DNA of 64,000 bases from an uncultured Gammaproteobacteria bacterium (GTDB taxonomy: Bacteria; Patescibacteriota; Microgenomatia; JALYQM01), in contig CAYOFQ010000002.1 in the NCBI GenBank assembly GCA_964403585.1, positions 5,667 through 69,666 on the forward strand, written 5' to 3'. Position 1 is the stretch's first letter. The number at the start of each line of letters is the position of its first letter. Of this stretch, positions 18,405-55,895 are shown one piece after another. The notes below the pieces were generated by a model. That model was not told where the DNA came from. It ran no database searches and was given only the letters and a program-made list of their open reading frames with translations. Position numbers and translations under genes: made by a program.

Positions 18405-18681
18405 CTCCCCGACTAGGATTCGAACCTAGAACCTTCTCGTTACATGAACCCCACAAGTTTCCTAGTGGCATGGACTATCTCATCACCATACTTAAAAAGC
18501 ACAGGTGTCAGGCGTATAGTCTCTGAACCTTCAATACGCAAGAAGCGTAAAGCTTGGCTGCGGATTACCATAATCTTTCGATCGTAGGCTTCCCGACAGT
18601 TAACCCAATTTTCACTTCAGGATTTCTCCAGAAGGCTGCATCAATCTACAGCGAGCCGCTCTACCGTTGAGCTATCAGGGA
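18405..18681 (-). tRNA. tRNA-Asn(GUU) interrupted by a group I intron (5' exon 18681..18648, 3' exon 18442..18405)
   Basis: The exons rebuild a 72-nt cloverleaf: acceptor UCCCUGA/UCGGGGA, D-arm GCUC-AACGGUA-GAGC, anticodon loop CUGU|UAA, T-arm CUAGG-UUCGAAU-CCUAG, discriminator G73; close to Bacillus-type tRNA-Asn. The intron sits between anticodon positions 35 and 36, after a U. Confidence 0.75.
18443..18647 (-). ncRNA. Group I self-splicing intron (IC3-like, 205 nt) within tRNA-Asn
   Basis: P1 pairs the 5' exon GCUGU with an internal guide GCAGC and ends on a U•G wobble at the splice site. The Q element AAUCCGCAGC is an exact match; the R-like GGUUCAGAGACUAUA and S-like GAGAUAGUCC pair in a P7-like helix (GACUAU/AUAGUC); there is a P-like UGUCGGGAAG; the last intron nucleotide is G. 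I recall the Azoarcus/cyanobacterial tRNA introns carrying similar …GCCAAGCUU… and …GAAGGU.UAGAGACUA.ACG… stretches, but this is from memory and not aligned. Confidence 0.8.
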
Positions 18682-18684
18682 ATA

Positions 18685-19401
18685 TTAACTTTTACCGTGC
18701 TTTAAGCACGATGCATCCTGAATTCTATCACCAAAAACAGCAGAAATCCACCCCATAATTTGACGCTGTATATCTGAGCAACTGAACCTAATAGAAAACA
18801 CTCCATAAGAGTGTATATTTTTTCTAATTTTCTGTGAATCAATCTTATTTTTTACTATATAAGTTTTATGGAATTTAGCCTTAGAAATACCCGTTAGTTG
18901 AGACCAAAATTCCCTTGCAGCTTCTATATCTAAACCTTCATGAATCCAAAGTGCACCTCTAAATCTATCTTCAGGGACCTTCGCAAATTGCCGTAACCAG
19001 CCCATCATAAACTCGATTATCCGAGGATCAGAATTTGCGATACCTCCCTTCCCATCGGCTTTATCACCTTCACCCAAATAAATAGCGATACCTGCCAACA
19101 ACCTGTCCCTTTCAGAAATCGCACCTAGTTCATTTTTTGCATGTAAAAATATTTGCTGAGTTTTATTAATTCTGTAGGAACGTTTATTTTCAGCTGCAGC
19201 AAGAGAACCCTTTTTTTGACCGTTAATTTTTGTAGTAATAAGCCGGTTTCTCTGTTCATCAGTTAATACTATATCCCTACACCAACGACTTAATGTGTCT
19301 TTAGAAACTTTAACCTGTAATAAAATCTCATTATAAGAAAGACCTTTACTTCTTAATTTCTGAGCAATAATTCGTTCTTCCAATTTCCCTGAATAACCCA
19401 T
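18685..19401 (-). CDS. HTH-domain protein with a possible degenerate LAGLIDADG-like motif (candidate free-standing homing endonuclease; weak)
   Basis: N-terminal HTH (LSYNEILLQVKVSKDTLSRWCRD); central LLAGIAIYLGEGDK resembles a degenerate LAGLIDADG motif; located immediately 5' of the intron-containing tRNA. Confidence 0.4.
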   Translation of the reverse strand: MGYSGKLEERIIAQKLRSKGLSYNEILLQVKVSKDTLSRWCRDIVLTDEQRNRLITTKINGQKKGSLAAAENKRSYRINKTQQIFLHAKNELGAISERDRLLAGIAIYLGEGDKADGKGGIANSDPRIIEFMMGWLRQFAKVPEDRFRGALWIHEGLDIEAAREFWSQLTGISKAKFHKTYIVKNKIDSQKIRKNIHSYGVFSIRFSCSDIQRQIMGWISAVFGDRIQDASCLKHGKS

Positions 19402-19504: not shown

Positions 19505-20206
19505 ATGAAAAACTCTTTTAATGTCAAATTTGCGCTAACCGCCATCGCAGTGGCTTTAATCCTCACCGGATTGGTTTTCACCGAAGTACTCCAGAGCAAT
19601 GCTAAAAAAGAATACCTCCGTAAAGCCGAAATTCAGCGCAAACTCGAAGACACCGCCCCCGCTCTTCTCCAGAAAGGCATCGATAAAATCCTCGGCGCTC
19701 AAGAGTTGAGCTTTTCAATGACCGAAACCTTCAGTGCTTTTGGCTGCGAATATACCACCATTTATGAAGGCCGGATTAAGGATGGCGAACAATACGCCAA
19801 AAATAACGTCAAATACGATAATAACGCCGTATTAAAAGATATCTGTCCCACTCAGTATAACGAAGTTATGTCCAATCTGTCAGGCGAACACTATTGGAAC
19901 ACCGCCAGTGATTCATACGAATATTCACCCGTCGACCAGCCAACCGAGTACCGCCAGCAGTTCTTCCGGGAAAATGTCGTCAACGCCAGTATTCAGGAAG
20001 TCTATGAAAACCCCACCAATATCCTGATGCGTACCAAATATACCAAAGACGACCAGGTCACCACGTACACCATAACTATAAACAAGCAAACCGAATCAAT
20101 TCAGAAAATTACCTTTACCCGCTCGGGCGATTCATCGCTCACCTCGGATACCGGTGACATCATCTTCATCTACGATGTCGACGAAGTTGCCCCGGCCCGG
20201 GGATAA
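19505..20206 (+). CDS. membrane-anchored hypothetical protein
   Basis: N-terminal TM/signal anchor (ALTAIAVALILTGLVF); the remainder is hydrophilic. Confidence 0.5.
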   Translation: MKNSFNVKFALTAIAVALILTGLVFTEVLQSNAKKEYLRKAEIQRKLEDTAPALLQKGIDKILGAQELSFSMTETFSAFGCEYTTIYEGRIKDGEQYAKNNVKYDNNAVLKDICPTQYNEVMSNLSGEHYWNTASDSYEYSPVDQPTEYRQQFFRENVVNASIQEVYENPTNILMRTKYTKDDQVTTYTITINKQTESIQKITFTRSGDSSLTSDTGDIIFIYDVDEVAPARG

Positions 20207-20524
20207 TTAACTGTTCTTAATTTTTTCTTCAATGTGATCCATTGTTTGTAAAAAAGCTTTTTCGATATCAATGTTGTAGCGCTTTGAAAGCACCAACACA
20301 CACCACAAACAATCTGCCAGCTCATGGGCCAATCGCTCATCTATATTTTCAAGTTTACGCACACCCTCTTTCGCCATGATTACTTCCATTAATTCACCAA
20401 TATCCGCCACAAACCCTTCCATAATATTGAGGTTAGTCCACGGAGTCCCCGACCGTTTTAACTCCAACTCCGAATACTTCTCCCGAATCTCAATCGCCCG
20501 CGCAGCTAAATCTTTAATGTCCAT
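20207..20524 (-). CDS. MazG-like nucleotide pyrophosphohydrolase
   Basis: 105 aa; FVADIGELMEVIMAKEG…LAHELADCLWCVLVLSKRYNIDIEKAF matches the MazG/NTP-PPase EExxE…(E/D)xxD helical motifs. Confidence 0.7.
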   Translation of the reverse strand: MDIKDLAARAIEIREKYSELELKRSGTPWTNLNIMEGFVADIGELMEVIMAKEGVRKLENIDERLAHELADCLWCVLVLSKRYNIDIEKAFLQTMDHIEEKIKNS

Positions 20525-20622
20525 ATGCCTCCTATAAAAAATGAGAGCTATCTGCTAGATAACTCTCATTGTACTACGCTATAGAATGTTCAGTCTCCTG
20601 GAAATATTTTCCTGAGCTTAGG

Positions 20623-20714
20623 TTATTCAGCGACATTCTTTGCCATACCTTAGCGGCAAAGCATAGGTTTAAAGGCTGAGACAAAGTCGAAGCGTTAACC
20701 GTGTCGCTGAATAC
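20623..20714. ncRNA. Unclassified structured-RNA motif, copy A (strand undetermined)
   Basis: Closing stem ATTCAGCGACA / TGTCGCTGAAT, inner hairpin CTTTGCC-ATACCTTAGC-GGCAAAG, then CATAGGTTTAAAGGC…GTTAACC. It shares a core with 63719..63835, with compensatory changes between the copies. Confidence 0.4.
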
Positions 20715-20732
20715 CCAAGCGAAGGGAAGAAC

Positions 20733-21872
20733 TTAATCTATATAATCTTTCAATTTTTTAGATCGGCTCGGATGACGCAACTTCCGCAGCGCCTTCGCCT
20801 CAATCTGACGAATACGTTCTCGAGTCACACCAAATTCCTTTCCAACCTCTTCCAGCGTTCGGGATTTACCGTCAATCAACCCAAACCGCATCTCAATAAT
20901 CTTGCGCTCACGATCAGTTAACGTAGATAAGACTTCCCAAATATGTTCACGCAATAAACCATGTGCAGCTTCGTCTTCCGGCAACGGCTCGTTGGCTTGC
21001 ACGAAATCTCCCAGGAAGCTGTCCTCATCCTCTCCAACCGGTTTTTCCAGAGAAGCCGGCTCTTGAGACACCTTAATAATCTCACGGGCCTTCTCGGGCT
21101 CTATACCCATTACTTTGGCCACTTCCTCTGGCGTTGGCTCACGACCCAGGTCCTGCATCATCTTACGTGATGTACGAACAAACCGGTTGATCGTTTCCAC
21201 CATATGCACCGGAATACGAATAACACGAGCCTGGTCAGCAATCGCACGGGTAATCGCCTGACGAATCCACCACGTCGCATACGTAGAGAATTTGTATCCG
21301 CGTCGCCAGTCATATTTTTCAACCGCACGAGCCAAACCAATATTTCCCTCCTGAACCAAATCCATCAAACTCATACCACGACCAACATATTTTTTGGCAA
21401 TTGAAACTACCAAGCGTAAGTTAGCTTCAACCAGTCGGTCATATGCTCGCTTATCTCCCTTTTCCACTTTCTTCGCCAAATCAATTTCCTGTTCAAAAGA
21501 CAACAGCGGAATGCGTCCGATCTCACGCAGGTACATACGTACCGGATCGGTTACAAAACCCTCATCAACCGTTGAAAGCACTTCCAGTTCTTTCTCAAGT
21601 TCCGAAGTACTCTTAACCGTATCTCCAGCCACTTCACTGGAAGTCTCAAACACATCAATCGACTCGGTGAGTAACTTGAGATACAAATTATCTAAGTCTT
21701 CTATGAAATATTCAGGCTGAGTATAGATTTCGAGAATATCATCCTGAGTAACAAAACCTTGCTTTTTACCTTTTTCAAGTAACTTCTTAATCATTCCGTT
21801 AACCACTTTAGGGTTAAGCACGGGAACGTCTTTGGTAACCTCGGCAGCAGGTGCTGCAGCAGTACTAGACAT
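20733..21872 (-). CDS. rpoD: RNA polymerase primary sigma factor (sigma-70 / RpoD)
   Basis: Regions 2 to 4 are conserved ([54 protein letters not shown]; [29 protein letters not shown]). Start chosen at ATG 21872, which is preceded by AAGAAGGAG, rather than the TTG-initiated extension to 21938. Confidence 0.9.
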
Positions 21873-21946
21873 GCAATACTCCTTCTTTCGGTATCCCCAG
21901 AGAAAAAAGACAAAAAAATGAATTCTCCAGGAATCCAATCACTAAA

Positions 21947-23866
21947 TTACAGCTTTTGCAATTTGCTCAAGCGTACAACAAGCATATCAACTTGCTGTTG
22001 TAAATGCGATATCTCGTCAGCCGTTCCTGAAAGCTCATTTTGCTTGATCTCAAGCGAAAGTACGCGCATTTGCTCGCGGATCATCATTTCTTTCAGGTTT
22101 TTAATAGTCAGGAACAATTCGCTACGCAACGCTTCGTCGCCTTCGGGCTCAATATCAATCAGGAAAATTTCATCAATGATTGGAATAATATCGCTCGTAG
22201 CACCTGCTATAAAATCCTGTACAAAACTCTCGGGATTAGCTATAAAGAAATCGACAAAATGAGTATACACCTCTTTGACCTTTTTGTCATCTATATCCTC
22301 TATCTTCAGCTTTTTCTCAATCCCCTGGACCGGCAGATGCAGGCGCATCAAAAGGGAGATAAAGTACCACTCCATCCGACCTTTTTTTGCCTGGTAGTCC
22401 ACTGCATACCGGTCAACCTCTTTCTGCTTCGCCCGGTTGGACAATTCTTCCAAACTGACAGTTTTAGGAAGCACCGGCCTGGTGGCCTTCGACTGTAGAA
22501 CCACCTTAGCAGAGTCCTTAACTTTCCCTGAATCACCAACTGATACACTTTGTCCTAGTTTAATCAACTCTACCTCTGAAATACCTAAATGAGTACTCAA
22601 TTTCTGGAGATAATGCGACCGTATAATCATATCCTTAATTCGCGAAAGCTGAGGCATTACCTCCCGTATGAAGTCACGCTTACCCACCGCATCCTTCACA
22701 TCGTACCGCTTCATGCCGCTTTGAATTATATAGTCGTAATACGGAACAGCCTGCTCCACTGCATCAATCCAGTTTTGAACTCCCTTACGGATGCATTCAT
22801 CCGGATCCTTACCGTTTTTTATTTGTATAACTTTTATCTCCATTCCCTTCTCTTCAGCCAAATAGATAGCCTTTCTCATTGCCATGTCCCCAGCCTTGTC
22901 CGCATCAAAACACAACAGCAAACGATTACATAATTTCCCCAGCATGGTAATCTGCTCTTCCGTTAAAGCTGACCCTTTTACTGCACACACATTCTTTACA
23001 CCGACACGGAAAGAAGACAGCATATCCATTTCACCTTCCACCAAAATAGCCTCACCTTTACGTCGGATAAACTCCTTCGCCTGGTAAAAGCCAAATAGAA
23101 ACTCCCGCTTATGGAAAATAGCTGTCTCCGCCGAGTTAATATATTTGGCAGTCTTATCCGTACCCAACACACGCCCGGCAAAACCTACTACCTGACCTGC
23201 TTTATCAAACAAAGGGAACATCACCCGTCCACGAAACATATCATAAAATCCGATACCTTTATCACTCTTAACACCCAATCCACCGGCAATAATTTCTTCT
23301 ATTGTAAAACCCTTCTTAAGTAAAAAATTTCCCAAACCATCCCAGCTCTTTGCCGAATACCCCAGCTGAAACAGCTCCGCCACATCATTCTTATCGGCCT
23401 TACCAGCCACAGGAATACTCTCACCAACCACCACACCCCGCTTCTCCAAATAATCCCGGGCTTCCTGCCCAACTTCATGCTTCACCAGCAAAAAATGATA
23501 GTACGCTACTGCCGCATCATGCATTTCATACAAACGTTCCCGTAAATCATTCTCCTGCCGGGACTGTTTACTCTCGATCTTCTGTATCTCTACTCCGGCT
23601 TCATCTGCCAATACTTTTACCGCTTCCGGAAACGTTAGTCCATCATGTTGCATCACAAAAGTGAACAAATCTCCGGATACTCCGCATCCGAAACATTTAA
23701 ATATCTGTCTATCAGGTGAAACATTGAATGAAGGAGAATTCTCTCCATGAAAGGGACACAAACCGGTAAAGTTTCGCCCTGCTTTTTTAAGTTGTATACT
23801 GCGCCCAATATAGTCAACAATATCTATCTTGTCTTTTATCTGTCGGATCTCGGTCTCGCTTGCCAT
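21947..23866 (-). CDS. dnaG: DNA primase DnaG
   Basis: CHC2 zinc finger (CPFHGENSPSFNVSPDRQIFKCFGCGVSGD), TOPRIM (ILVEGEMDMLS…CFDADKAGDMA); classic dnaG-rpoD operon arrangement. Confidence 0.9.
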   Translation of the reverse strand: MASETEIRQIKDKIDIVDYIGRSIQLKKAGRNFTGLCPFHGENSPSFNVSPDRQIFKCFGCGVSGDLFTFVMQHDGLTFPEAVKVLADEAGVEIQKIESKQSRQENDLRERLYEMHDAAVAYYHFLLVKHEVGQEARDYLEKRGVVVGESIPVAGKADKNDVAELFQLGYSAKSWDGLGNFLLKKGFTIEEIIAGGLGVKSDKGIGFYDMFRGRVMFPLFDKAGQVVGFAGRVLGTDKTAKYINSAETAIFHKREFLFGFYQAKEFIRRKGEAILVEGEMDMLSSFRVGVKNVCAVKGSALTEEQITMLGKLCNRLLLCFDADKAGDMAMRKAIYLAEEKGMEIKVIQIKNGKDPDECIRKGVQNWIDAVEQAVPYYDYIIQSGMKRYDVKDAVGKRDFIREVMPQLSRIKDMIIRSHYLQKLSTHLGISEVELIKLGQSVSVGDSGKVKDSAKVVLQSKATRPVLPKTVSLEELSNRAKQKEVDRYAVDYQAKKGRMEWYFISLLMRLHLPVQGIEKKLKIEDIDDKKVKEVYTHFVDFFIANPESFVQDFIAGATSDIIPIIDEIFLIDIEPEGDEALRSELFLTIKNLKEMMIREQMRVLSLEIKQNELSGTADEISHLQQQVDMLVVRLSKLQKL

Positions 23867-33103: not shown

Positions 33104-33121
33104 TTCCTTATTCTATTTGAG

Positions 33122-33208
33122 CGGAGAGGGAGGGATTCGAACCCTCGATACCCTTGCGAGTATATTGTCTTTCCAGGACAACGCACTAGTCCACTATGCG
33201 ACCTCTCC
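33122..33208 (-). tRNA. tRNA-Ser(GGA)
   Basis: Class II tRNA: GGAGAGG acceptor, anticodon stem-loop UUGUC-CUGGAAA-GACAA, long variable arm, T-loop GGUUCGAAUCC; CCA not encoded. Confidence 0.8.
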
Positions 33209-33342
33209 TTAAAATAACTGGGTTGTATCAATAACTATCTGCTTTGATACAAGCCAGGTATTTTAACTGTGGGGTCGTCCTGTAAGGGCGACCTCTCCAA
33301 ACATGCTCCTTATTCTAACACAGATTCAACTGAAAATCTCAC

Positions 33343-33825
33343 CTAGTACAACTTTCGCTCATAAGTAATAACCGGCGTTGTGGAAATAAAAACTTCCGGT
33401 ACACCCTCTTGCCCTAAATTCTCCCCCACCCGCCGTACTCCGTCTATCGTGTGGTCTACAATCCGTCGAGCGACATATTTACTTGTCTGCCACGGATGAG
33501 CATCAAAACAACATGCTAACTCGTAAGCTCTATGTACCAATCGCCCGGTCTTACTCTCGGCGTTTTTACCATAGAAAGCAGTCATACCCCAGGTAAACGC
33601 TGCGCCACCAACATTAATTGCCATTGCCCCTATAGTCGCTGTCCTGGCATCAACCAGATTAAGTGCTGCAGCACCCGCCCAAACCGCATTTTGACCATAT
33701 CCGACTAAACGGACAGGGACATGTGCTGCAAAAAGTATTTTACGCTCATGGCGTTGAAGAAATCCTGCAACCCGTTCTTTTACAGGAGTAAGGAGGTCTA
33801 AATTGTCACGATACTGCTCTAACAT
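33343..33825 (-). CDS. hypothetical protein
   Basis: 160-aa ORF with Gly/Ala-rich hydrophobic stretches; no recognised motif. Confidence 0.45.
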   Translation of the reverse strand: MLEQYRDNLDLLTPVKERVAGFLQRHERKILFAAHVPVRLVGYGQNAVWAGAAALNLVDARTATIGAMAINVGGAAFTWGMTAFYGKNAESKTGRLVHRAYELACCFDAHPWQTSKYVARRIVDHTIDGVRRVGENLGQEGVPEVFISTTPVITYERKLY

Positions 33826-33925
33826 AAGGGTAAATTATACCATCCCGGAAAACAAATACGAAGTTCGACAATCCTGACAAAATTGTCATGGACTCCGTTC
33901 CGCATACACATAACAATAGCAGCAT

Positions 33926-36397
33926 ATGCACCAACTCTTCAAACCCCGCATTATAATCTATTGTGTTCTTTTTGCTTCAATGTTGACCATGCCAACACTG
34001 ATTCACCAACCACCGACCGCTGATGCCCACGTCATCAAGTACCCGATTATCCTAATCCCCGGCTTTGCCGGGACTACCCTGAGTACCTCCGACCTGGGTA
34101 CGGTATACGAAGGTGACGACGGGCACGGCGGTATATTTGAACACCACTACCTCGCCAATGAGCAAGTTTGGATTAATACATCCGAAGCAGCCAACCCGGG
34201 TGAAGACGATTATTTTGACGCGCTAAAGATGAAGCCTGACGGCCAAACGCCAGAATCTAATCTATATCCCCGGTTTCCCGTACCAGAAGTCTACCAACCC
34301 ACACTCGAATACTTCCGAACCAAAGGCTATCGTGACGGGAGAGACCTTTTTACTTTTGCCTACGATTGGCGCAGAGATATACGTATAAACAATGACCAGC
34401 TCGACGACCTCATCACCTATGCCAAACAAAGAACCGGACTACCGAAAGTTAATATAATAGCTCATTCCATGGGAGGACTGTTAATTAGACACTATATTAC
34501 CGACGCAACCAAAGCACAAAACATCTTCCGCGCAGTGACACTTGGCACACCGTATCTTGGTTCTCCCGAATTTCTCAAGTGGATGGGCTATGGAGGGTGC
34601 CTGACCAATCTCAACACAGGAGCTCCGTGTATTGGCATACCCGCTTCGGAAACCAAAGATATCGTCCAAAATTTCATTTCCGGCTACCAACTACTTCCTT
34701 CTCAAAAATATTATGATTTTTACGACGGGCACGACGCACAACATCCACGACCGTTTAAAGACACACGAGATATAGATACAAATGGAATCACTGGCGAACT
34801 AAGCTATCTCCAAGTAAAGGAATTATTAACAAACACTGGATATAATACCGCTCTTTTTACACCTGCCGAAGAACTGCATCAGCAAATAGATACAACTCTC
34901 CCAGTAATACTTGGTGGACAATTAACACTCATCGTAGGATCAGGTCAGGCAACTATTGGGCAAATTGAAGAACGTAATGTAGTGAACGTAGGGAATATTG
35001 CAATCAATAAACGCGACATTCACATGATCAACGGCGACGGCTCGGTACCACTTTTTAGCGCATCATTAGACGACAGCACCAACGGTCACCTGCTAACCGG
35101 GAATGCCCAAGTATTTTACACTAAACAAAACCACAATCAACTCCCTCAGGACAGTAATACCTTGGGATTGATTAATCATATATTTACGGGCAATCCCGGA
35201 GACACATACACCAATCCCGCTATTACGACACAACCGTTCCCACTCAATGGATGGTTAGTCTCAGTACATTCTCCGGTAACGCTGGACTTATATGATGAAA
35301 ATGGACTACTCACCGGAACCTCAAGCACAAACATAGAAACTGCTATTCCAAACACGTATTACGACACGGTAGACGACACTAAATATATTTGGGTAGATAA
35401 CATTTCCAACTACTACCTAAAATTCAAAGCCACAAGCGCAGGATCATTTGACCTAAAAATTCGTGAATACAACAACAATCAAATAGTCCAAGCCATCTTA
35501 TATAAAGATATTCCACTAACACAAAACACCATTGTTCAAAGTAGACTTAATACAGATAATTTCATGATACCCATACTGCAGATAGATGCCGACGGCGACG
35601 GAACATGGGAGAGTCTCGTTGATCCGACCGAAACCACTCATGAACACATTGACAACCTCCCACCCACCACTCAGATCACCGTTTCCGGCGAGCAAGGGAA
35701 TCAAGGTTGGTATAAAGACACTGCAACCATCCAATTAGCCGCTGAAGACAACCAAGGAGGCTCAGGAGGGGTAAAAATACACTACTCGGTGAATCAGGAA
35801 CCGATGAAGCAGTACAGCACTCCTTTTCAAATTTCCTCAGAGGGAGTCTCTACTTTAACCTACTATTCCGAAGATCAGGTCGGCAATACAGAAACGCTGA
35901 AAGAGCAACAAATAAAAATCGATCGTACCGCACCTGAAGTACAGGTGATGTTTATCAGCAATCAACTGGTCACGGAAATTGTAGGTAAAGACAATCTAAC
36001 CCCTGTGTCTACAGTGAAAAATACTGACCAAGTAGTAGTAACCGACGAGGCAGGTAATACCACCTCCATAAAACATCAAGCTAAAATAAACAAAGATCAA
36101 ACTAAAATCGAATTAACCACCATCTCATATAATGGCCAAGTATTCTCCCTGACTCCTAATCGATACGAATCCACGTATGAGACACAAAGCGGTACCGATC
36201 CCCTCAAGGAACTAGAACAAAAAATCAGTATTAAAGGTGAAGAAAAACTAACCGCACACTACTCTCAAAAGAAATACAAGACAGTTATTAAAGATAAAAA
36301 CCGCCAAGACAAAAAACAAAGCTATGAGGTGGAAGGCCTACAAACTATTATTCTCGGCACCAATAAAGGAGTAGTTTATACTAGTCTAAACATATGA
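33926..36397 (+). CDS. secreted alpha/beta-hydrolase (lipase/LCAT-PGAP1-like, GxSxG = AHSMGG) with C-terminal Ig-like repeats
   Basis: Signal peptide; PIILIPGFAGTTL oxyanion region; nucleophile elbow IIAHSMGGLLIRHYI; C-terminal beta-rich repeats resembling bacterial Ig-like domains. Confidence 0.7.
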   Translation: MHQLFKPRIIIYCVLFASMLTMPTLIHQPPTADAHVIKYPIILIPGFAGTTLSTSDLGTVYEGDDGHGGIFEHHYLANEQVWINTSEAANPGEDDYFDALKMKPDGQTPESNLYPRFPVPEVYQPTLEYFRTKGYRDGRDLFTFAYDWRRDIRINNDQLDDLITYAKQRTGLPKVNIIAHSMGGLLIRHYITDATKAQNIFRAVTLGTPYLGSPEFLKWMGYGGCLTNLNTGAPCIGIPASETKDIVQNFISGYQLLPSQKYYDFYDGHDAQHPRPFKDTRDIDTNGITGELSYLQVKELLTNTGYNTALFTPAEELHQQIDTTLPVILGGQLTLIVGSGQATIGQIEERNVVNVGNIAINKRDIHMINGDGSVPLFSASLDDSTNGHLLTGNAQVFYTKQNHNQLPQDSNTLGLINHIFTGNPGDTYTNPAITTQPFPLNGWLVSVHSPVTLDLYDENGLLTGTSSTNIETAIPNTYYDTVDDTKYIWVDNISNYYLKFKATSAGSFDLKIREYNNNQIVQAILYKDIPLTQNTIVQSRLNTDNFMIPILQIDADGDGTWESLVDPTETTHEHIDNLPPTTQITVSGEQGNQGWYKDTATIQLAAEDNQGGSGGVKIHYSVNQEPMKQYSTPFQISSEGVSTLTYYSEDQVGNTETLKEQQIKIDRTAPEVQVMFISNQLVTEIVGKDNLTPVSTVKNTDQVVVTDEAGNTTSIKHQAKINKDQTKIELTTISYNGQVFSLTPNRYESTYETQSGTDPLKELEQKISIKGEEKLTAHYSQKKYKTVIKDKNRQDKKQSYEVEGLQTIILGTNKGVVYTSLNI

Positions 36398-36651
36398 AAG
36401 TTACCAAGCATCTTCCAATTGTATTCGCAAGTATTGTAATCTGGCTCTTTTCACTTGTAACTCAAGCATACATAGATATGGCGGTATTTAAACACGCACC
36501 GGTCTTCCCTGCTCCCACATGTTCAGGAACCGGCTACCCTATTGCCTTGTGCAGCAGCAACGGCACCATAACCATTATCGTATGCCTTTTAAATATTACT
36601 CTTATTTTTGGAATACTTTCCCTTATTCGGTGGATCTATAATACGAAATAA
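36394..36651 (+). CDS. small membrane protein (two TM), hypothetical
   Basis: 85 aa; start overlaps the upstream stop (ATGA). Confidence 0.35.
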   Translation: MKVTKHLPIVFASIVIWLFSLVTQAYIDMAVFKHAPVFPAPTCSGTGYPIALCSSNGTITIIVCLLNITLIFGILSLIRWIYNTK

Positions 36652-36654
36652 CAG

Positions 36655-36738
36655 CGGAGAGGGTGGGATTCGAACCCACGAGGCTCATCACCTAGACGTG
36701 TTCGAGACGTCCGCACTCGGCCACTATGCGACCTCTCC
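36655..36738 (-). tRNA. tRNA-Ser(CGA)
   Basis: GGAGAGGUCGCAUAGUGGCCGAGUGCG…GACGU-CUCGAAC-ACGUC…GGUUCGAAUCCCACC; long variable arm. Confidence 0.8.
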
Positions 36739-36837
36739 TTAATATATCTTGTTCATACCTACTGGAGCCTGATAGGCATGAACAAGATATATTATCGTGA
36801 GCGTCGTCCTGTAGGGACGACCTCTAGCCCATTCTAG

Positions 36838-36910
36838 TGCACTCGACAGGAGTCGAACCTGTAACCGTCAGCTCCGCAAGCTGATGCTCTATCCATTAAG
36901 CTACGAGTGC
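36838..36910 (-). tRNA. tRNA-Arg (anticodon read as GCG)
   Basis: GCACUCG acceptor, D-arm GCUU-AAUGGAU-AGAGC, anticodon stem-loop UCAGC-UUGCGGA-GCUGA, T-arm ACAGG-UUCGACU-CCUGU. Confidence 0.7.
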
Positions 36911-36981
36911 CCATCTTTCATGCCTAAGCACAAAACTACCGTCATATTATAACGCACAAAGCCATTTCGCACAATTGAAGA

Positions 36982-37530
36982 TTATTGAGCGGTTTTCTCA
37001 AGAGGAAACTTCTTCGACACCCATTCTGCAGCCCGATCCACCGCTGAAGTATCCTTGCTGTCTTTCAGGATCAACCGTGTTCCAATTACCTGCTCGATTT
37101 GCTCCCGGGTAGCCGGCTCTCGCAACAATAAGTATATTGACCCGGGGAGACTGGCTTTAGTTCGCGCCACCATAATATCATTACCCCAGCGTTTCTCGAA
37201 CCAGTAGTACAGAAGATCCGGCCAGGCATAAAAGTGATTCCCGTTCTTAATTCCTGTCGTAAAAATTTCATTATCAATATCGTCAGGCGGAACGGTATAC
37301 AATACGTACACCAGAAAAACAAACGCAATCACTACGGCAATGACCAGGAACTCCCGCATAAAAAACAGGATCACAATAGATAAAATTGCCATAATAGTCA
37401 CTGTAGTGAAAAAATCTTTATCACGCTTTTTAAATGGGCGTGAAGGAGATCGCCATTGTAAAAGTAACTTTTTTTCTTCCTCAGGAACAATAGCTACCGT
37501 TGGTTGAGAGGAAACAGAAGAAGTGTCCAT
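36982..37530 (-). CDS. membrane protein, hypothetical
   Basis: 182 aa with two central TM helices. Confidence 0.5.
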   Translation of the reverse strand: MDTSSVSSQPTVAIVPEEEKKLLLQWRSPSRPFKKRDKDFFTTVTIMAILSIVILFFMREFLVIAVVIAFVFLVYVLYTVPPDDIDNEIFTTGIKNGNHFYAWPDLLYYWFEKRWGNDIMVARTKASLPGSIYLLLREPATREQIEQVIGTRLILKDSKDTSAVDRAAEWVSKKFPLEKTAQ

Positions 37531-37595
37531 AAGCGAATAAAAAGGATTATACTGAACACAGAATATCAGATGTGCGTAATAATGCGCAAGAGCTA

Positions 37596-39419
37596 TTATC
37601 CAAAAGTAAATGCAAAAACCTGAACACGATCATCTAAAAACTCTAATTCAATAGTCGCATCCGTCCATTCGGCAAAGGTAGCCAAATTGTATAACTTGGC
37701 AGCTTTCACCAGAAGTGAATTATCCCGAACGTCTTTACTGACATTTTTCTTATTAGTCCCCGTAACAGTGATCTTCACTCGCTTCCCATTTACCAATACT
37801 GTCTTAGGTTGTCCGTTCCCCTGACAATATTCACCTGTACAAACAAGCGAATCATCACCGGACGCAATAGGTACACTCACCCCGTCCGACATTACTAAAT
37901 TAATCTCTTTACCAATAAAATGGTAACGGAGTGTACTCCCCTTCTCTGCTTCAGCGTATTCAGGAGTTATTTTCCATCTCCCTCCTAAACTATACTGACT
38001 TGCCGACAAATCGTATCGCAATGAATAAGTGGAAAATGAATCCCGAACAACGCTTTCTTTTGACCTAAATTGCTCTTCATCTAATCGTGCGTAACCAACA
38101 TATGTCTCTGGACTAATATCCCGATCTACCACAACACCCGCTTCCTTAGTAAGTTCATAATCTGCCTGCACACCCCGCTCTGCCAATAATAACTGGATCG
38201 CCCGTTCCATATTCTCATAATCACCTTCTCCAAAATGATAGCGCCGGATTCTTCCCTGTGCATCAATCAGGTAATGTGCCGGCCAGTAATGGTTTTCATA
38301 CGCCCGCCAGGTACCAAAGTCATTATCCATCACCACCGGATACGTCAAACCAAAATCAGCAATTGCTTTCTCTACATTTTCCTGAACCTTTTCAAACGCA
38401 AATTCAGGCGAATGCACACCAATAACGGTGAAACCTTTATCTTTATATTTCTTATGCCAATCCTCAATATACGGCAATGTACGAATACAGTTAATACAGC
38501 TGTAGGTCCAAAAATCCACTAAAACAACGTTTCCCTGTAATGCTTTAAGTGTAAAAGGTTCCGGAGTATTCAACCATTTGGTTGGCTTTACAAACTCGGG
38601 AGCCGGACCGACATCTCTCAACAGAGTAGCGCTATCAAAACGGATATCACGTTGTGGAGTTCCCGGATTCTCACGAAGCTGCTGTAATTGACCCACAACC
38701 TCGCTACTCGATTCATACGAAGCTAAGGGGGTTAATACCCAACTCGGTAAACGCTGTACAATAAAAGTCTGAAAACGGCGGTCAATATTGAACACCAAAG
38801 CTAAAGCTGCCAGGATCATTACCACGCCAAAGAATTGTTGGATTCGCCCGGAATATTTATTAAGCAAACGGAAGCGACTTAATATCTCTTTACCACCATA
38901 CGCAATCATCAACAGCACCGAAGCGGATCCGCAAACATATGCAAAGGTTATCAAAACTGCCTCAATAGTTACTGACTGAGTCGCCACCAAAGTAATAACC
39001 GCCGCCAGTATTGGCCCTGCGCAGGGAACCCACAATAAACCGACTGTCAATCCAATCACTACCCCACCCCAAAATCCCGTCCGCTGTCCGACACTTCCCA
39101 CCTGCCCGCTCAACCGGGAAAAAACCCGCTCCGTGAACTGTGAAAAATACGGTACCACCATGGATAAACCAAACATAAATATTAGAACAATGGAAAGATT
39201 CCGCAGCAAATCCGGCGGCAAATTAAAACGATCTACTAATGCGGTTAAACCCAATGTAAAAAACGTAAAGCTGAAAATAAGTCCGAGGATAACCCCCAAC
39301 GGACGACGCGAACCACCAACAACAGTTGAAGATAGAACAATCGGTAAAATTGGCAATACACACGGTGTTAAAGCAGTAACAAATCCGGAAACAAAGGCAA
39401 AAATGAGAAGAAGTGCCAT
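37596..39419 (-). CDS. cytochrome c-type biogenesis CcdA/DsbD-like transmembrane domain fused to thioredoxin-like (TlpA/ResA-type) domain
   Basis: N-terminal CcdA-like TM helices with paired Cys (ALTPCVLP, LWVPCAGP); central redoxin domain with CxxC (WTYSCINCIRTLPYIEDWHKKYKDKGFTVIGVHSPEF). Confidence 0.75.
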   Translation of the reverse strand: MALLLIFAFVSGFVTALTPCVLPILPIVLSSTVVGGSRRPLGVILGLIFSFTFFTLGLTALVDRFNLPPDLLRNLSIVLIFMFGLSMVVPYFSQFTERVFSRLSGQVGSVGQRTGFWGGVVIGLTVGLLWVPCAGPILAAVITLVATQSVTIEAVLITFAYVCGSASVLLMIAYGGKEILSRFRLLNKYSGRIQQFFGVVMILAALALVFNIDRRFQTFIVQRLPSWVLTPLASYESSSEVVGQLQQLRENPGTPQRDIRFDSATLLRDVGPAPEFVKPTKWLNTPEPFTLKALQGNVVLVDFWTYSCINCIRTLPYIEDWHKKYKDKGFTVIGVHSPEFAFEKVQENVEKAIADFGLTYPVVMDNDFGTWRAYENHYWPAHYLIDAQGRIRRYHFGEGDYENMERAIQLLLAERGVQADYELTKEAGVVVDRDISPETYVGYARLDEEQFRSKESVVRDSFSTYSLRYDLSASQYSLGGRWKITPEYAEAEKGSTLRYHFIGKEINLVMSDGVSVPIASGDDSLVCTGEYCQGNGQPKTVLVNGKRVKITVTGTNKKNVSKDVRDNSLLVKAAKLYNLATFAEWTDATIELEFLDDRVQVFAFTFG

Positions 39420-39518
39420 ACTTCAGTATAGCATAGTGCGGAGAGGATTGGGCGATATTTGAACTTTTCTAAGTCAATCCTCTTGTGCATAAAACAGAAA
39501 AATTCGTAAGATATTATT

Positions 39519-40343
39519 ATGGCTAAGAAAAAGGGTGTCCAAAAATATTTTATACACCTAATTATAGCAGTTATATTAATAACCGGACTATATATAACTA
39601 TCTTCCTAAACCTCATCACTCCTCGTCATTCTAATAATATTAGACCTCAAAAAAATATAATAAATACGCCTACTTCTTCGTTCAAGGCAACTATTCTACC
39701 TATACCGACTCATACACCATATCCAATCAAATATAAAACTTATATAAACAATAAATCTGGGTTTTCTATAAAATATCCAGAAGTTACAGAAGCACTTTGG
39801 ACAGGTTGTGACGTTAATTCACAATCTTCAGGGATGACTAGCGGAATAATTCCAACAAAGTTAATCGAAGATCCGTCTAATGACACTATTTACCTCACCG
39901 TCACAAAATACGCCCATGTAGATATGATAAAAACCGCAAACAGTATGGTTAATGATCCTACATCGTGTAAAGTTGAGGAGGTAAATTTAAACCTAGTAAA
40001 AAATGGATATACTCAAAAACCATACGGACCAAATTATCCTAAACATACAAAGTTCATCTATAAGCAGATCAATAACGATAAAGACTTATCAGCTTTCGCT
40101 CAAGAGGTATATGGGGACAAATGTAATAACATAACAAAAATTCCATCTAACGAACTTAAGGGTATTTACAATATAGAATTTAATAATAGAAACCCAGATA
40201 CCGGATGCTGGATAGGAGCTGTTATCCGCTTTATATATTCACCTAAAAACAGGTTAGCAGTTACTTGGATCTTAGGACATGAACCACCATATCAAATATA
40301 CGGGCAAGTCCACGAGCTAGAAGTTAACTTTTTACAACATTAA
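39519..40343 (+). CDS. membrane-anchored hypothetical protein
   Basis: N-terminal TM LIIAVILITGLYITIFLNLI. Confidence 0.5.
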   Translation: MAKKKGVQKYFIHLIIAVILITGLYITIFLNLITPRHSNNIRPQKNIINTPTSSFKATILPIPTHTPYPIKYKTYINNKSGFSIKYPEVTEALWTGCDVNSQSSGMTSGIIPTKLIEDPSNDTIYLTVTKYAHVDMIKTANSMVNDPTSCKVEEVNLNLVKNGYTQKPYGPNYPKHTKFIYKQINNDKDLSAFAQEVYGDKCNNITKIPSNELKGIYNIEFNNRNPDTGCWIGAVIRFIYSPKNRLAVTWILGHEPPYQIYGQVHELEVNFLQH

Positions 40344-40397
40344 CCCTACATTTACAGATTCTGTAAAGACCTCTTCTGTTATAAACTTGAAGACTAC

Positions 40398-40491
40398 TGG
40401 CGGAGAGGGAGGGATTCGAACCCTCGATACGGGTTTAGGCCCATATAATTTCTTAGCAGGAAATCGCTTTCGTCCACTCAGCCACCTCTCC
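40398..40491 (-). tRNA. tRNA-Ser(GCU), CCA encoded
   Basis: GGAGAGGUGGCUGAGUGG…AUUUC-CUGCUAA-GAAAU…long variable arm…GAGGGUUCGAAUCCCUCCCUCUCCGCCA. Confidence 0.8.
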
Positions 40492-40552
40492 AAAGGTAAC
40501 CTGGAAACTTGAGGAAGTATATCACAAAACAGGCAGAAAATTCTCCCCCATC

Positions 40553-41380
40553 TTACGCAACCCGGTGACGAAGCCGTTTGAACTTGAACAAAAACCAGAT
40601 AAAAGCCACATAATAGACCATAATTGCCAGTTTCATCACACTGAATTCACGGTCAATCCCTACCAAACCCTTAAGCAAGTGTCCCACCATCGTTTCATCA
40701 TCAGGCAGGAAATTCAGTGGTATCGGCACAATACTGGACAAGTGAATATCACCATAAACCTCAAACAACTCCCCCAGTCCCCGCTGCACCAGAGCAGCAC
40801 CCGTTACCACAATTAAAGCCTCTGTGGCCTTAAAAATTTTACGGATCGGGAATTTGGTATACAGGAAGAATATAGCCAACCCAATCACGCTTGCACCGGC
40901 AAATCCCAAAAGCAATCCGACAAAATTCTGGAAAAAGACCGAAAAAAGCGCCGTACTGGCAGTAAATAAAGCTATCTCCGCCCCTTCACGAATCACCATA
41001 AAAAAGACCGTAAAAAAGAGCGAAAAATCAAACGCGTCCGGTCGAACACGTCCGGTTACCGTCGAAATCTGGTCACTATCCTTCTTTTTGAGGCGACCAT
41101 GTAAAGACAAAACTAAATAAACAATAAAGAACCCGGAGAAGGTCATTAAGTATCCCTCAAGCATATCCGCATTGCGTTCAGTCAACACCCCTCTGGCGAG
41201 ATCTCCAAACACATAGGTAAGACTGGAAAGAACTAATGAAAAGATCATTCCCACCCCGGCTGCCCAATAAATCTCACGCTCTTTTTTTAATTCAAGTTTC
41301 CGCGAAATCCCAAGGAAAACACCGGTAATCAGAAAGGCTTCTAAAAATTCACGAAAAGCAACAAGTGCAATAATTAACAT
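40553..41380 (-). CDS. FTR1/EfeU-family high-affinity iron permease
   Basis: Seven TM helices and the two RExxE motifs of the family (FREFLEAFL and VIREGAEIALF). Confidence 0.75.
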   Translation of the reverse strand: MLIIALVAFREFLEAFLITGVFLGISRKLELKKEREIYWAAGVGMIFSLVLSSLTYVFGDLARGVLTERNADMLEGYLMTFSGFFIVYLVLSLHGRLKKKDSDQISTVTGRVRPDAFDFSLFFTVFFMVIREGAEIALFTASTALFSVFFQNFVGLLLGFAGASVIGLAIFFLYTKFPIRKIFKATEALIVVTGAALVQRGLGELFEVYGDIHLSSIVPIPLNFLPDDETMVGHLLKGLVGIDREFSVMKLAIMVYYVAFIWFLFKFKRLRHRVA

Positions 41381-41452
41381 AGATCAACACTATACTAAAA
41401 ATAATATTTTGTGTATTTACAAATAAAACCCGAAGTAGTATAGTAACCTTGC

Positions 41453-42019
41453 ATGAGAAATACTCGTAAAACGCCCAACACTACTTGTGCTTACTGCCAA
41501 ATTCCTTTCTATAAAAAACCTTCAGAAATAAAAAAATATAAGCACACCTTTTGTTCGACTAAATGCTATGGAAAGTTTAGTAGCCACCCCTTAACTTGCA
41601 TTATCTGCGGAAAAGAATACCCAAGAAAATTTCACAAAAAAACCTGTAGCCGCAGCTGCGCTAATAAGCACCGAAGTGGAATAAAATATAAAGTAAATCG
41701 ACCAAGAGACAAAGTCGCTTACTCAACAGGGCTTAAAATACGCTTATTATCTGAAAGAGGCTCATCATGCCAAAGATGTAATTTCCCAAAAACAGAAATT
41801 TTAATTGTTCACCATAAAGACAGGGATAGGACCAACAACAACCTGAAAAATTTGGAGCTTATTTGCCCAAACTGTCATGCTGAAGAACACTATCTAGAAA
41901 AAAACTGGCTAAAAAGATATAATGTTCAGGAATTTAAAGAAAAGCTCCTTTTGAAAGAATCTGCTTACTTTATCTATCGTACGGAGAGGTCGCCTAGTGG
42001 TTTATGGCAGAAGTCTTGA
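41453..42019 (+). CDS. HNH-family endonuclease; 3' end overlaps tRNA-Ser(UGA)
   Basis: Cys-rich N-terminus; HNH core ILIVHHKDRDRTNNNLKNLELICPNCH. There is no in-frame stop before the tRNA, so the last roughly 15 codons read into it. Confidence 0.6.
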   Translation: MRNTRKTPNTTCAYCQIPFYKKPSEIKKYKHTFCSTKCYGKFSSHPLTCIICGKEYPRKFHKKTCSRSCANKHRSGIKYKVNRPRDKVAYSTGLKIRLLSERGSSCQRCNFPKTEILIVHHKDRDRTNNNLKNLELICPNCHAEEHYLEKNWLKRYNVQEFKEKLLLKESAYFIYRTERSPSGLWQKS

Positions 42020-42069
42020 AAACTTCCAGGTGATGAGCCTCGTGGGTTCGAATCCCACCCTCTCCGCCA
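41973..42069 (+). tRNA. tRNA-Ser(UGA), CCA encoded
   Basis: GGAGAGGUCGCCUAGUGG…GAAGU-CUUGAAA-ACUUC…long variable arm…GGGUUCGAAUCCCACCCUCUCCGCCA. Confidence 0.8.
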
Positions 42070-54733: not shown

Positions 54734-55895
54734 ATAAATTCACTAGTCAACCTAAAATTCAAACAGATCACGCACCTCAACACCCAATCGCACAGCAAGC
54801 TTTATCAAATACCACACCGTTGTATTCACATATCCATTTTCAATTTTAGCCGGGACCGAAGTGAAAAGTATTATCTTCTCTCAATAATCATTTACAGATG
54901 TGGAAAAGTTACCGGTCTACAAGACAAACCATTTATGACAAAAAATCAGGGGTTGGAACCAGTACTTTATCCAGTCCTATTAAGGTTTTTGATGCTTTAA
55001 AAACATCAAAAGAAAATGATGTGGAGATGCCGATCTATGAAATCGGGTCTGGAATCTGTAATTAAAAACATCTACATAGCATAGTCGGTACTTATATCTC
55101 GTACCACAACGATCCTACCGACAGGAGAAGTGATACAAAGGTCAAAGTCTTAAAGGATTACAGCGACCACCCCGAATCCTCGCATACAATCTTTGTTTAC
55201 GCCCTACTCCGCTCGATTGTAAAATCAGAATAGAACGTCCATTGTTTAGCTAAAGAAAAGTTTAGCCAAATGCAGGATAGCTAACGCCTGCTACAGCGTT
55301 ACCCAAGCCGAAGTTTGGGAACTTTGCAGCGATTTTGTCAGCTATTGATGTAGAAGAATCTGCATCTATATTTTAGTCCCGTTTTTACGACTCTTGAGAC
55401 CATCGTCGGCTATGCAGTTTTTAAAGAGCACATCCCATCGAAACAACACATCCCCATGAGATTTTATGTTAAGACTAGTGCTTAACAAGACTGAATTATA
55501 ACACATTTTAAGCCATTTTTCCAGTAAAATAAACCTGCCAAACCGCTAATAGCAGAGCAAAGCTTTAAACGCAAGCAGAGCGAAGCCTTAATCGTATCAC
55601 TGGCAAGCTCGACAAGAAGGGTATAATTACCCTGTTGACATACATACACTAATGATATAACATATAAATATACTTACAGTATAACAGTCATCACTCGCTG
55701 TAAGTGTTCCTTAAAAATTCCTTTTCTGATTTCGTCGCAGACCCCGGGATCATATAAAAAGGGCACAATACATGTCCTGTCAGTATCTCATTATAGGTGC
55801 CGCTAAATTGGATAAGGAATTTATGAATAAACCCGTCTTTGAAACATAAGGCGGGTTTATTTTTATGCAAAGCCTTTCTCCCTTTACCCCTACAC

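Follow-up and report, generated by a model that had tools for sequence, protein, structure and literature searches.

Introns that interrupt tRNA genes between anticodon nucleotides 35 and 36 were recently surveyed by Nakagawa et al. (mSystems 2026; PMC13011429), who identified 22 intron-bearing tRNA genes in 95 complete Patescibacteria genomes, among them 15 of tRNA-Asn(GUU) and three of tRNA-Asp(GUC), all of these split at 35/36. Across 4,934 complete genomes the same authors counted 28 introns at this position, 19 in Patescibacteria and the other nine in Cyanobacteriota, Nitrospirota, Bacillota_A, Bipolaricaulota and Pseudomonadota; cases in tRNA-Asn(GUU) also occur in Cyanobacteriota, Nitrospirota and Bipolaricaulota (PMC13011429). 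Precise self-splicing in vitro was demonstrated for a tRNA-Asn intron of Saccharimonadia (GCA_016700035.1) and a tRNA-Asp intron of Microgenomatia (GCA_001029755.1), and a change of the terminal G to C abolished the splicing of both (PMC13011429). The Patescibacteria tRNA introns mostly have no endonuclease gene (PMC13011429). According to Nakagawa et al. (PMC13011429), the first catalogue of the site is that of Williams 2020 (tFind; bioRxiv 10.1101/2020.01.27.920355), where it appears as class Asn.4Ug.

The window, i.e. the whole stretch of 64,000 nucleotides that was analysed here, contains a locus of this kind. A preliminary description had placed a group I intron in a tRNA-Asn(GUU) gene at positions 18405-18681, and both these coordinates and the interval of 205 nt between the two tRNA halves proved to be exact. 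The same description held that tRNA-Asn was not among the known hosts of such introns. This statement is out of date, because Nakagawa et al. (PMC13011429) report the same site, with 15 tRNA-Asn(GUU) introns at 35/36 and splicing in vitro; the window intron is one more member of a family whose description and demonstrated splicing date from 2025-2026. The identity of the element as a group I intron lying within the anticodon of a tRNA-Asn(GUU) gene on the minus strand is confirmed by a covariance model, by a tRNA search that allows introns, by homologues that are spliced and by covariation in 80 relatives. The whole split gene runs from 18681 to 18405 on the minus strand, and its parts are the following.

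18648..18681, minus strand: 5' exon of tRNA-Asn(GUU), 34 nt, UCCCUGAUAGCUCAACGGUAGAGCGGCUCGCUGU, from T18681 to T18648, with the end ...CUGU (ARAGORN intron mode); it holds the acceptor strand, the D arm, the 5' strand of the anticodon stem and C32, U33, G34 and U35.
18443..18647, minus strand: group I intron, 205 nt, AGAUUG...UUCAUG, with A+1 at 18647 and the terminal G at 18443.
18405..18442, minus strand: 3' exon of tRNA-Asn, 38 nt, UAACGAGAAGGUUCUAGGUUCGAAUCCUAGUCGGGGAG, from T18442 to G18405, UAACGAG...GGGGAG; it holds U36, A37 and A38, the 3' strand of the anticodon stem, the variable loop, the T arm, the acceptor strand and the discriminator G (18405), and CCA is not encoded at its end.

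ARAGORN called no tRNA gene at the locus in its default mode; in intron mode it called tRNA-Asn(gtt) with a 205-nt intron (gctgt-intron-taacg), in agreement with the boundaries given above. The RF00028 search in Rfam that had been proposed as a check matched positions 18657-18451 on the minus strand with 79.7 bits, which passes the gathering score of 50 (E=1.2e-18; model positions 1-253 of 253). When the exons were joined, they folded as a tRNA-Asn cloverleaf of 72 nt with the interruption between nucleotides 35 and 36 and with the anticodon loop CUGUUAA that had been anticipated; the predicted ligated-exon sequence contains ...CUGUUAACGAG.... Uninterrupted tRNA-Asn genes that sit in the same gene order on other contigs are likewise 72 nt long, and the spliced product could be aligned without gaps to the uninterrupted tRNA-Asn of one locus, L152. 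As the D loop of the gene is one nucleotide short, the junction corresponds to 35/36 in standard numbering. The acceptor strands had been described as perfectly complementary; the stem does form, but one of its pairs, U5·G68, is not Watson-Crick. In the anticodon stem, nucleotides 27 and 43 are mismatched (G·A).

The same letters can also be read with both splice sites two nucleotides further 5', at 33/34, in which case the product would be tRNA-Thr(UGU). ARAGORN calls Thr(tgt) at many homologous loci, as does tFind, and the same ambiguity was described by Nakagawa et al. (PMC13011429), whose sequencing of spliced products confirmed the 35/36 junction in the published cases. For the window copy, which ARAGORN calls Asn and whose exons match tRNA-Asn genes, we regard the 33/34 junction as extremely improbable: the intron would end in A and not in G, and the nucleotide before the 5' splice site would face A and not G, whereas the U·G wobble and the terminal G that go with 35/36 are kept in 80 of 80 relatives.

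With the junction at 35/36, the fold of the intron was assigned element by element. Intron position i lies at window coordinate 18648 - i.

18635..18640, minus strand: internal guide sequence UGCAGC (intron nt 8-13), which forms P1 with exon GCUGU and intron A1.
18615..18634, minus strand: P2 hairpin (nt 14-33), 8 pairs including one U·U mismatch, with the GAAA tetraloop L2.
18604..18608, minus strand: P3 5' strand UUGGG (nt 40-44), partner of CCUGA at 18508-18512 (nt 136-140).
18527..18598, minus strand: P4-P5-P6 domain (nt 50-121), from the Rfam alignment and covariation.
18516..18523, minus strand: P7 5' strand (nt 125-132), within the R element GGUUCAGAGACUAU, with a bulged A and the G of the guanosine-binding pair.
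18508..18512, minus strand: P3 3' strand, only 3 nt after P7.
18484..18507, minus strand: P8 hairpin (nt 141-164), with receptor-like CCUGUG...UAUGG and covarying outer pairs.
18472..18478, minus strand: P7 3' strand (nt 170-176), within the S element GAGAUAGUCC.
18444..18471, minus strand: P9.0 and P9; in P9.0, AUG pairs with CAU, which stands directly before the terminal G205, and P9 is enclosed between the two strands.

In P1, the exon nucleotides G31-C32-U33-G34-U35 and intron A1 face the guide, and the wobble at the 5' splice site is U35·G9 (18639); this pair and the G at 18443 are the U•G wobble and terminal G of the preliminary description. The remaining elements that it had listed, namely a Q element with ten matches of ten, R, S and a P-like element, are likewise all present in the Rfam alignment: Q is AAUCCGCAGC and agrees with the Rfam consensus at 10 of 10 positions, R is GGUUCAGAGACUA, and S is GAGAUAGUCC. 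The P4-P6 domain comprises the P element (UGUCGGG), J4/5 AA, a GAAA-capped P5a, the receptor-like motif CCUACG...UAUGG in P5, Q and P6/P6a. The G-C pair of the guanosine site is present in P7. Since only 3 nt separate P7 from the P3 3' strand, J7/3 carries no hairpin of the P7.1/P7.2 type. Two of the five P3 pairs of the window copy are G·U; P9 has 7 pairs including one U·U mismatch and is capped by a GAAA tetraloop (L9). P8 has in many relatives the canonical form CCUAAG...UAUGG. No convincing contiguous P10 was seen when the 3' exon was inspected visually against the 5' portion of the guide; the only possible pairing noted was one of 3 bp, which is non-contiguous.

In order to find relatives, 185,579 species-representative genomes were scanned with the pattern TAGARC-N6-CTGT...AGAGACTA...ANATAGTCC, which is tuned to compact copies. 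At least 120 related loci were obtained, and those among the matches listed comprise 86 in tRNA-Asn and 34 in tRNA-Asp. Six loci that a simple splice-site classifier had labelled Tyr or His were all tRNA-Asn on inspection, so that no Tyr or His host tRNA is present among these at least 120 matches. The record titles of the matches listed are mostly of Patescibacteria, including Saccharibacteria, Paceibacterota, Daviesbacteria, Roizmanbacteria, Gottesmanbacteria, Levybacteria, Woesebacteria and Collierbacteria; further titles give Chloroflexota, Nitrospirota, Omnitrophota, Planctomycetales or Gammaproteobacteria. Among the matches listed, the closest introns are 73-75% identical to that of the window (L046, L035 and L103), within a wider range of 64-75% for the nearest loci, and the closest exons, at 90% identity, belong to two Daviesbacteria loci (L058 and L075). 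The introns of the tRNA-Asn copies listed measure 144 to 234 nt, with a median of 199. The window intron had been called as small as the Azoarcus ribozyme and an attractive minimal ribozyme; its 205 nt bear out the first part, but the second is weak, because 52 of the 81 tRNA-Asn copies among the matches listed are shorter than 205 nt, which makes its size ordinary.

The proposed structure was then projected on a MAFFT alignment of 80 tRNA-Asn copies. Standard pairs occupied 77.7% of cells, compared with 36-44% after the 3' partners had been slid by 1-3 columns, and the covariation score was 0.37, against 0.08-0.14 in the slid controls; none of 500 shuffles attained the observed percentage paired or the score. 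Two-sided changes were found in P2, P3, P4, P6, P8, P9.0 and P9. All 8 pairs of P2 covary (88.6% of cells paired), and two-sided changes occur in three of the five P3 pairs (86% of cells paired), in four pairs of P4 (UA/AU 58:19, CG/GC 60:17), in all nine pairs of P8, most clearly the outer ones, and in 3 of 3 pairs of P9.0 and 6 of 7 of P9 (82-83% of cells paired). The base of P6 covaries as well (CG/GC 51:29). At the tips of P5a, P6a and P8 the alignment is poor, with 40-60% of cells paired. The core hardly varies: GCAG·CUGU of P1 is the same in 79-80 of the 80 relatives, no change occurs in six of the seven P7 pairs, and the U35·G9 wobble and the column of the terminal G are both constant in 80 of 80. 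Exon CUGU, AGAGACUA on the 5' side of P7 and AUAGUCC on its 3' side are also invariant (80/80 each), which holds partly by construction, because these strings were fixed in the search pattern; the constancy of CUGU and of most P7 bases therefore has little evidential value.

Against this background we see no sign of decay in the window copy. It matches the consensus in 59 of the 61 columns that are conserved at 85% or more and keeps every invariant core position, and both of its departures lie in a P4 variant (UGUCGGG) that is present in several relatives. These figures argue against a decaying pseudogene, i.e. an inactive intron in a tRNA that has fallen out of use, to which one could be led by the mismatches in P2, P9 and the 27-43 pair and by the failure of ARAGORN to call the gene in its default mode. 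Moreover, the position downstream of dnaG-rpoD recurs in many related loci, the 64-kb window holds no other tRNA-Asn gene, and Patescibacteria usually have a single tRNA-Asn gene, intron-bearing and intron-less copies with the same anticodon rarely coexisting (PMC13011429). We therefore consider decay very improbable.

The locus is thus very probably a functional tRNA-Asn(GUU) gene of Patescibacteria (Microgenomatia, Daviesbacteria-like), split between U35 and U36 by a 205-nt self-splicing intron. We put this so firmly because the intron is homologous to relatives that are spliced and because its structure is intact and covarying; the catalytic activity of the window copy itself is what we infer from these sequence comparisons. 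The weak points of this copy are the two G·U pairs among the five of P3, the U·U mismatches in P2 and P9 and the G·A at 27-43. If the standard group I pathway and the published splicing of the homologues are taken as a guide, the gene would be transcribed, possibly jointly with the gene of a 238-aa protein that lies upstream, and the guide UGCAGC would pair with the exon to form P1, in which U35 and G make the wobble pair of the splice site. Folding of the P3-P8 and P4-P6 domains would follow, and the GAAA loops L2 and L9 would probably dock into the receptor-like motifs of P8 and P5, as in Azoarcus. A free guanosine bound in P7 would attack after U35; the terminal G (18443), set by P9.0, would then replace the guanosine, and the 3'-OH of U35 would attack the 3' splice site. 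The expected result is a 72-nt tRNA with the loop CUGUUAA, which RNase P and CCA addition would complete.

The same contig is present in the Logan assembly of run SRR16481186. The genes upstream on the strand of the tRNA are dnaG, rpoD and a small MazG-like gene; these are followed, toward the tRNA, by a 233-aa gene on the opposite strand and then by the 238-aa gene. Many of the related loci listed have dnaG and rpoD near their intron-bearing tRNA gene. RpoD is 61-70% and DnaG 43-49% identical to the proteins of the closest loci listed, including those of Daviesbacteria (L058, L075, L089 and L101). Homologues of RpoD, DnaG and the 238-aa protein occur, with identities of 44-70%, in Daviesbacteria loci and in loci labelled Gammaproteobacteria, and the best named homologues of the neighbouring proteins are those of Daviesbacteria and Roizmanbacteria. 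From the neighbouring genes and the exons, and not from a phylogeny, we infer that the host belongs to the Microgenomatia and is Daviesbacteria-like.

The gene nearest to the tRNA lies outside the intron.

18685..19401, minus strand: gene of a 238-aa protein, with its stop codon 3 nt before the tRNA.

At its N-terminus the protein carries a weak HTH, and its C-terminal part is a LAGLIDADG-fold domain. The C-terminal motif AGIAxYxGEGxK is invariant in the family, as is the acidic residue of GEG (E111), and a profile of 15 homologues matched the second LAGLIDADG motif of I-DmoI in PDB sequences (E=8e-4). Pfam, NCBIfam and PHROGs recognised the HTH only and not the LAGLIDADG-like domain, and a Foldseek search against the PDB gave nothing specific for the protein. 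Its closest named homologues are those of Daviesbacteria (65-66%), and every database name in the family is 'hypothetical protein'. A scan for promoters and terminators between this gene and the tRNA gave nothing convincing.

In at least 14 genome loci, 13 of tRNA-Asn and one of tRNA-Asp, the gene immediately upstream of the intron-bearing tRNA encodes a homologue of this protein; intron-bearing loci outside the clade of the window mostly have none. The linkage was also analysed from the side of the protein, in 80 metagenome loci that were picked by homology to the 238-aa protein alone (the query was a 9-sequence alignment), 68 of which had enough DNA downstream. Our own classifier found an intron-bearing tRNA-Asn downstream in 54 of the 68 and an uninterrupted tRNA-Asn in seven (three to four distinct). 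Seven loci were unclassified, and in several of them introns were suggested by ARAGORN or by the core pattern; an odd tRNA-like sequence was found downstream in two loci, L176 and L182, which are identical over the region examined. Because uninterrupted tRNA-Asn genes also adjoin it, the gene is linked with tRNA-Asn and not strictly with the intron, and the linkage is most simply explained by conservation of gene order.

The predicted domains of the 238-aa protein would suit a free-standing homing endonuclease, a domesticated DNA-binding protein like WhiA, or a maturase. LAGLIDADG proteins are maturases of some organellar group I introns, and a role of this kind would mean that the group I fold of the window intron is kept while its splicing depends on a protein. 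The weak P3 of the window copy would fit such a dependence, as would the place of the gene directly upstream of the tRNA, repeated in the 13 tRNA-Asn loci listed and in at least 54 of the 68 metagenome loci. We judge it improbable nonetheless, because most intron-bearing tRNA-Asn loci listed have no such gene beside the tRNA, the gene also adjoins the seven uninterrupted tRNA-Asn genes, and the retained E111 of GEG fits DNA cleavage or binding better than a purely RNA-binding role; furthermore, related introns splice in vitro in a protein-free manner (PMC13011429). Self-splicing remains the reading that we prefer.

A second role can be suggested tentatively, and we think it rather unlikely: the HTH-LAGLIDADG protein may target the tRNA-Asn gene, either as a free-standing homing endonuclease or as a domesticated form of one. 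If so, the protein would be what drives or stabilises the spread of an intron with no endonuclease gene of its own, an arrangement known as 'collaborative homing', for which the cyanophage psbA intron and F-CphI are the precedent. To our knowledge, such a homing partner has not been reported for the tRNA introns of Patescibacteria. In comparison with the LAGLIDADG homing endonucleases I-DmoI, I-CeuI and I-Tsp061I, the 238-aa gene is free-standing and lies outside the intron. The transcription factor WhiA, which is derived from LAGLIDADG proteins, has two degenerate domains and a C-terminal HTH, whereas the 238-aa protein has a single domain and an N-terminal HTH.

As a ribozyme, the intron adds one compact natural variant of 205 nt to a family with members shown to self-splice, and it opens no new question. 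The HTH and LAGLIDADG-fold gene upstream, which is kept beside tRNA-Asn in Microgenomatia-like genomes, is the only element of the locus that may repay further work. For genome annotation, default tRNA finders miss the gene, and a genome of this kind therefore seems to have no tRNA-Asn and receives a lower completeness score; the same point on completeness was made in published work (PMC13011429).

Among described introns, the tRNA-Leu(UAA) intron of Nostoc PCC 7120 (249 nt, subgroup IC3) is likewise a bacterial group I intron of an anticodon loop, and this intron of cyanobacteria and plastids self-splices and usually has no endonuclease gene. It is unlike the window intron in its insertion site (34/35), its core (GUGCAGAGACUCGACGG / GAGAGAGUCC), its greater length and its lineage. 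The tRNA-Ile(CAU) intron of Azoarcus sp. BH72 belongs to subgroup IC3 and has 205 nt. By inspection, the window intron looks IC3-like, compact and Azoarcus-like, because there is no hairpin between P7 and the P3 3' strand, where IA introns carry P7.1/P7.2. Visible in its sequence are the GAAA loops on P2 and P9 and the receptor-like motifs CCUACG/UAUGG in P5 and CCUGUG/UAUGG in P8; two GAAA loops that face two receptor motifs are what we take to be the design of the Azoarcus IC3 intron. The two would presumably share, apart from their equal length, a P1-P9 layout with no peripheral extensions, the GAAA loops on P2 and P9, receptor-like CCUAxG...UAUGG in P5 and P8, and the motifs GCCAAGC and AAGGU.NAGAGACUA. 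The Azoarcus intron differs, as we understand it, in its tRNA, its position in the anticodon loop, its guide sequence and its phylum. It was reportedly the subject of work by Reinhold-Hurek and Shub in 1992, and its crystal structures are said to be those of Adams et al. in 2004.

The closest likeness is to the published introns at 35/36. Nakagawa et al. (PMC13011429) assign these introns to subgroup IA by means of subgroup covariance models and state that none of the tRNA introns of Patescibacteria is IC. Most published tRNA-Asn introns have 20-50 extra nt between P7 and the P3 3' strand, which the window copy lacks, and the hairpins formed there presumably underlie the 'IA' assignment. The window intron has in common with the published introns the guide gcagc, a P region with ...gggaagcctacg..., Q tatggtaatccgcagccaagc, R gaaggttcagagacta, S gatgagatagtcc and the design of P9. 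The published tRNA-Asn introns and the window intron have the same host tRNA, the same insertion site and the same GCAG guide to C32-U35, and in both the terminal G follows P9.0 and a P9 with a GNRA loop. Four of the 15 published tRNA-Asn introns contain an HNH endonuclease gene, and the window intron does not. Over the whole length, the window intron is 53-64% identical to the published tRNA-Asn introns, about 60%, and 55-63% identical to the tRNA-Asp introns (50-64% for the 18 published sequences overall). Among the published tRNA-Asn genes, those with the closest exons are from the Microgenomatia genome GCA_016700135.1, which agrees at 60 of 72 positions, and the Paceibacteria genome GCA_030583765.1, which agrees at 61 of 72. 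The latter has a tRNA-Asn intron that is also of 205 nt, and the short P7-P3 junction of the window intron resembles that of this intron too. The tRNA-Asp(GUC) intron of GCA_001029755.1 (196 nt; 62% identical) is compact like the window intron and likewise has a short junction from P7 to P3. It differs in its host tRNA, in a 3' exon that starts with CAC and not with UAA, and in the sequences of P4 and P6. Since its exon also ends in ...CUGU, it has the same guide as the window intron, and it comes from the same class of host bacterium.

Four of the related tRNA-Asn introns found by the pattern scan of species-representative genomes (loci L070, L086, L089 and L101) lack the entire P9 hairpin, as can be observed in columns 265-295 of alignment A3. 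In these introns, only a few A residues separate the 3' strand of P7, which reads ...GUCCAUU or ...GUCCAA, from the terminal G, and a short hairpin is present between P7 and P3. Their 3' ends may be naturally occurring minimal versions.

A different arrangement was observed in two metagenome loci selected by homology to the 238-aa protein, L176 and L182, whose sequences do not differ over the region examined. At the expected tRNA-Asn site, which begins and ends approximately 90-130 nt beyond their 238-aa gene homologue on its downstream side, both contain the sequence TCCCCGGTAGCTC-TCCGCCAGCCGGCGGAG-GTAGAGCGG, which looks like a D loop with an inserted G+C-rich hairpin. This apparent hairpin is followed by A+T-rich sequence, and no recognisable anticodon arm was found within 500 nt. 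This tRNA-like sequence could be a broken gene or a different kind of interruption.

Elsewhere in the window, four tRNA-Ser genes (GGA, CGA, GCU and UGA) and one tRNA-Arg(GCG) gene lie inside 9 kb (33121-42069), and all five are uninterrupted. A tmRNA was detected with Rfam; ARAGORN reported none anywhere in the window.

55019-55455, minus strand, tmRNA (437 nt, 91.3 bits)

Compared with the Rfam model, this tmRNA carries long insertions, about 76 nt of them in the tag-coding region.

Upstream of the window tRNA-Asn (19505-23866), four genes were identified, in this order:

21947-23866, minus strand, dnaG
20733-21938, minus strand, rpoD
20207-20524, minus strand, MazG-like gene
19505-20206, plus strand, 233-aa gene

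Among the matches listed, many related loci likewise have dnaG and rpoD near their intron-bearing tRNA; L098, L109 and L117, labelled Chloroflexota, are among them.

Also among the matches listed, the related intron is present in many MAG records from third-party assemblies whose taxonomic label reads 'uncultured Gammaproteobacteria' or 'Pseudomonadales', including L006, L013, L014, L020, L035 and L046. These labels may be wrong: RpoD and DnaG of at least L035, L070 and L084 share 42-69% identity with the window proteins, and are as close to them as those of the Daviesbacteria loci.
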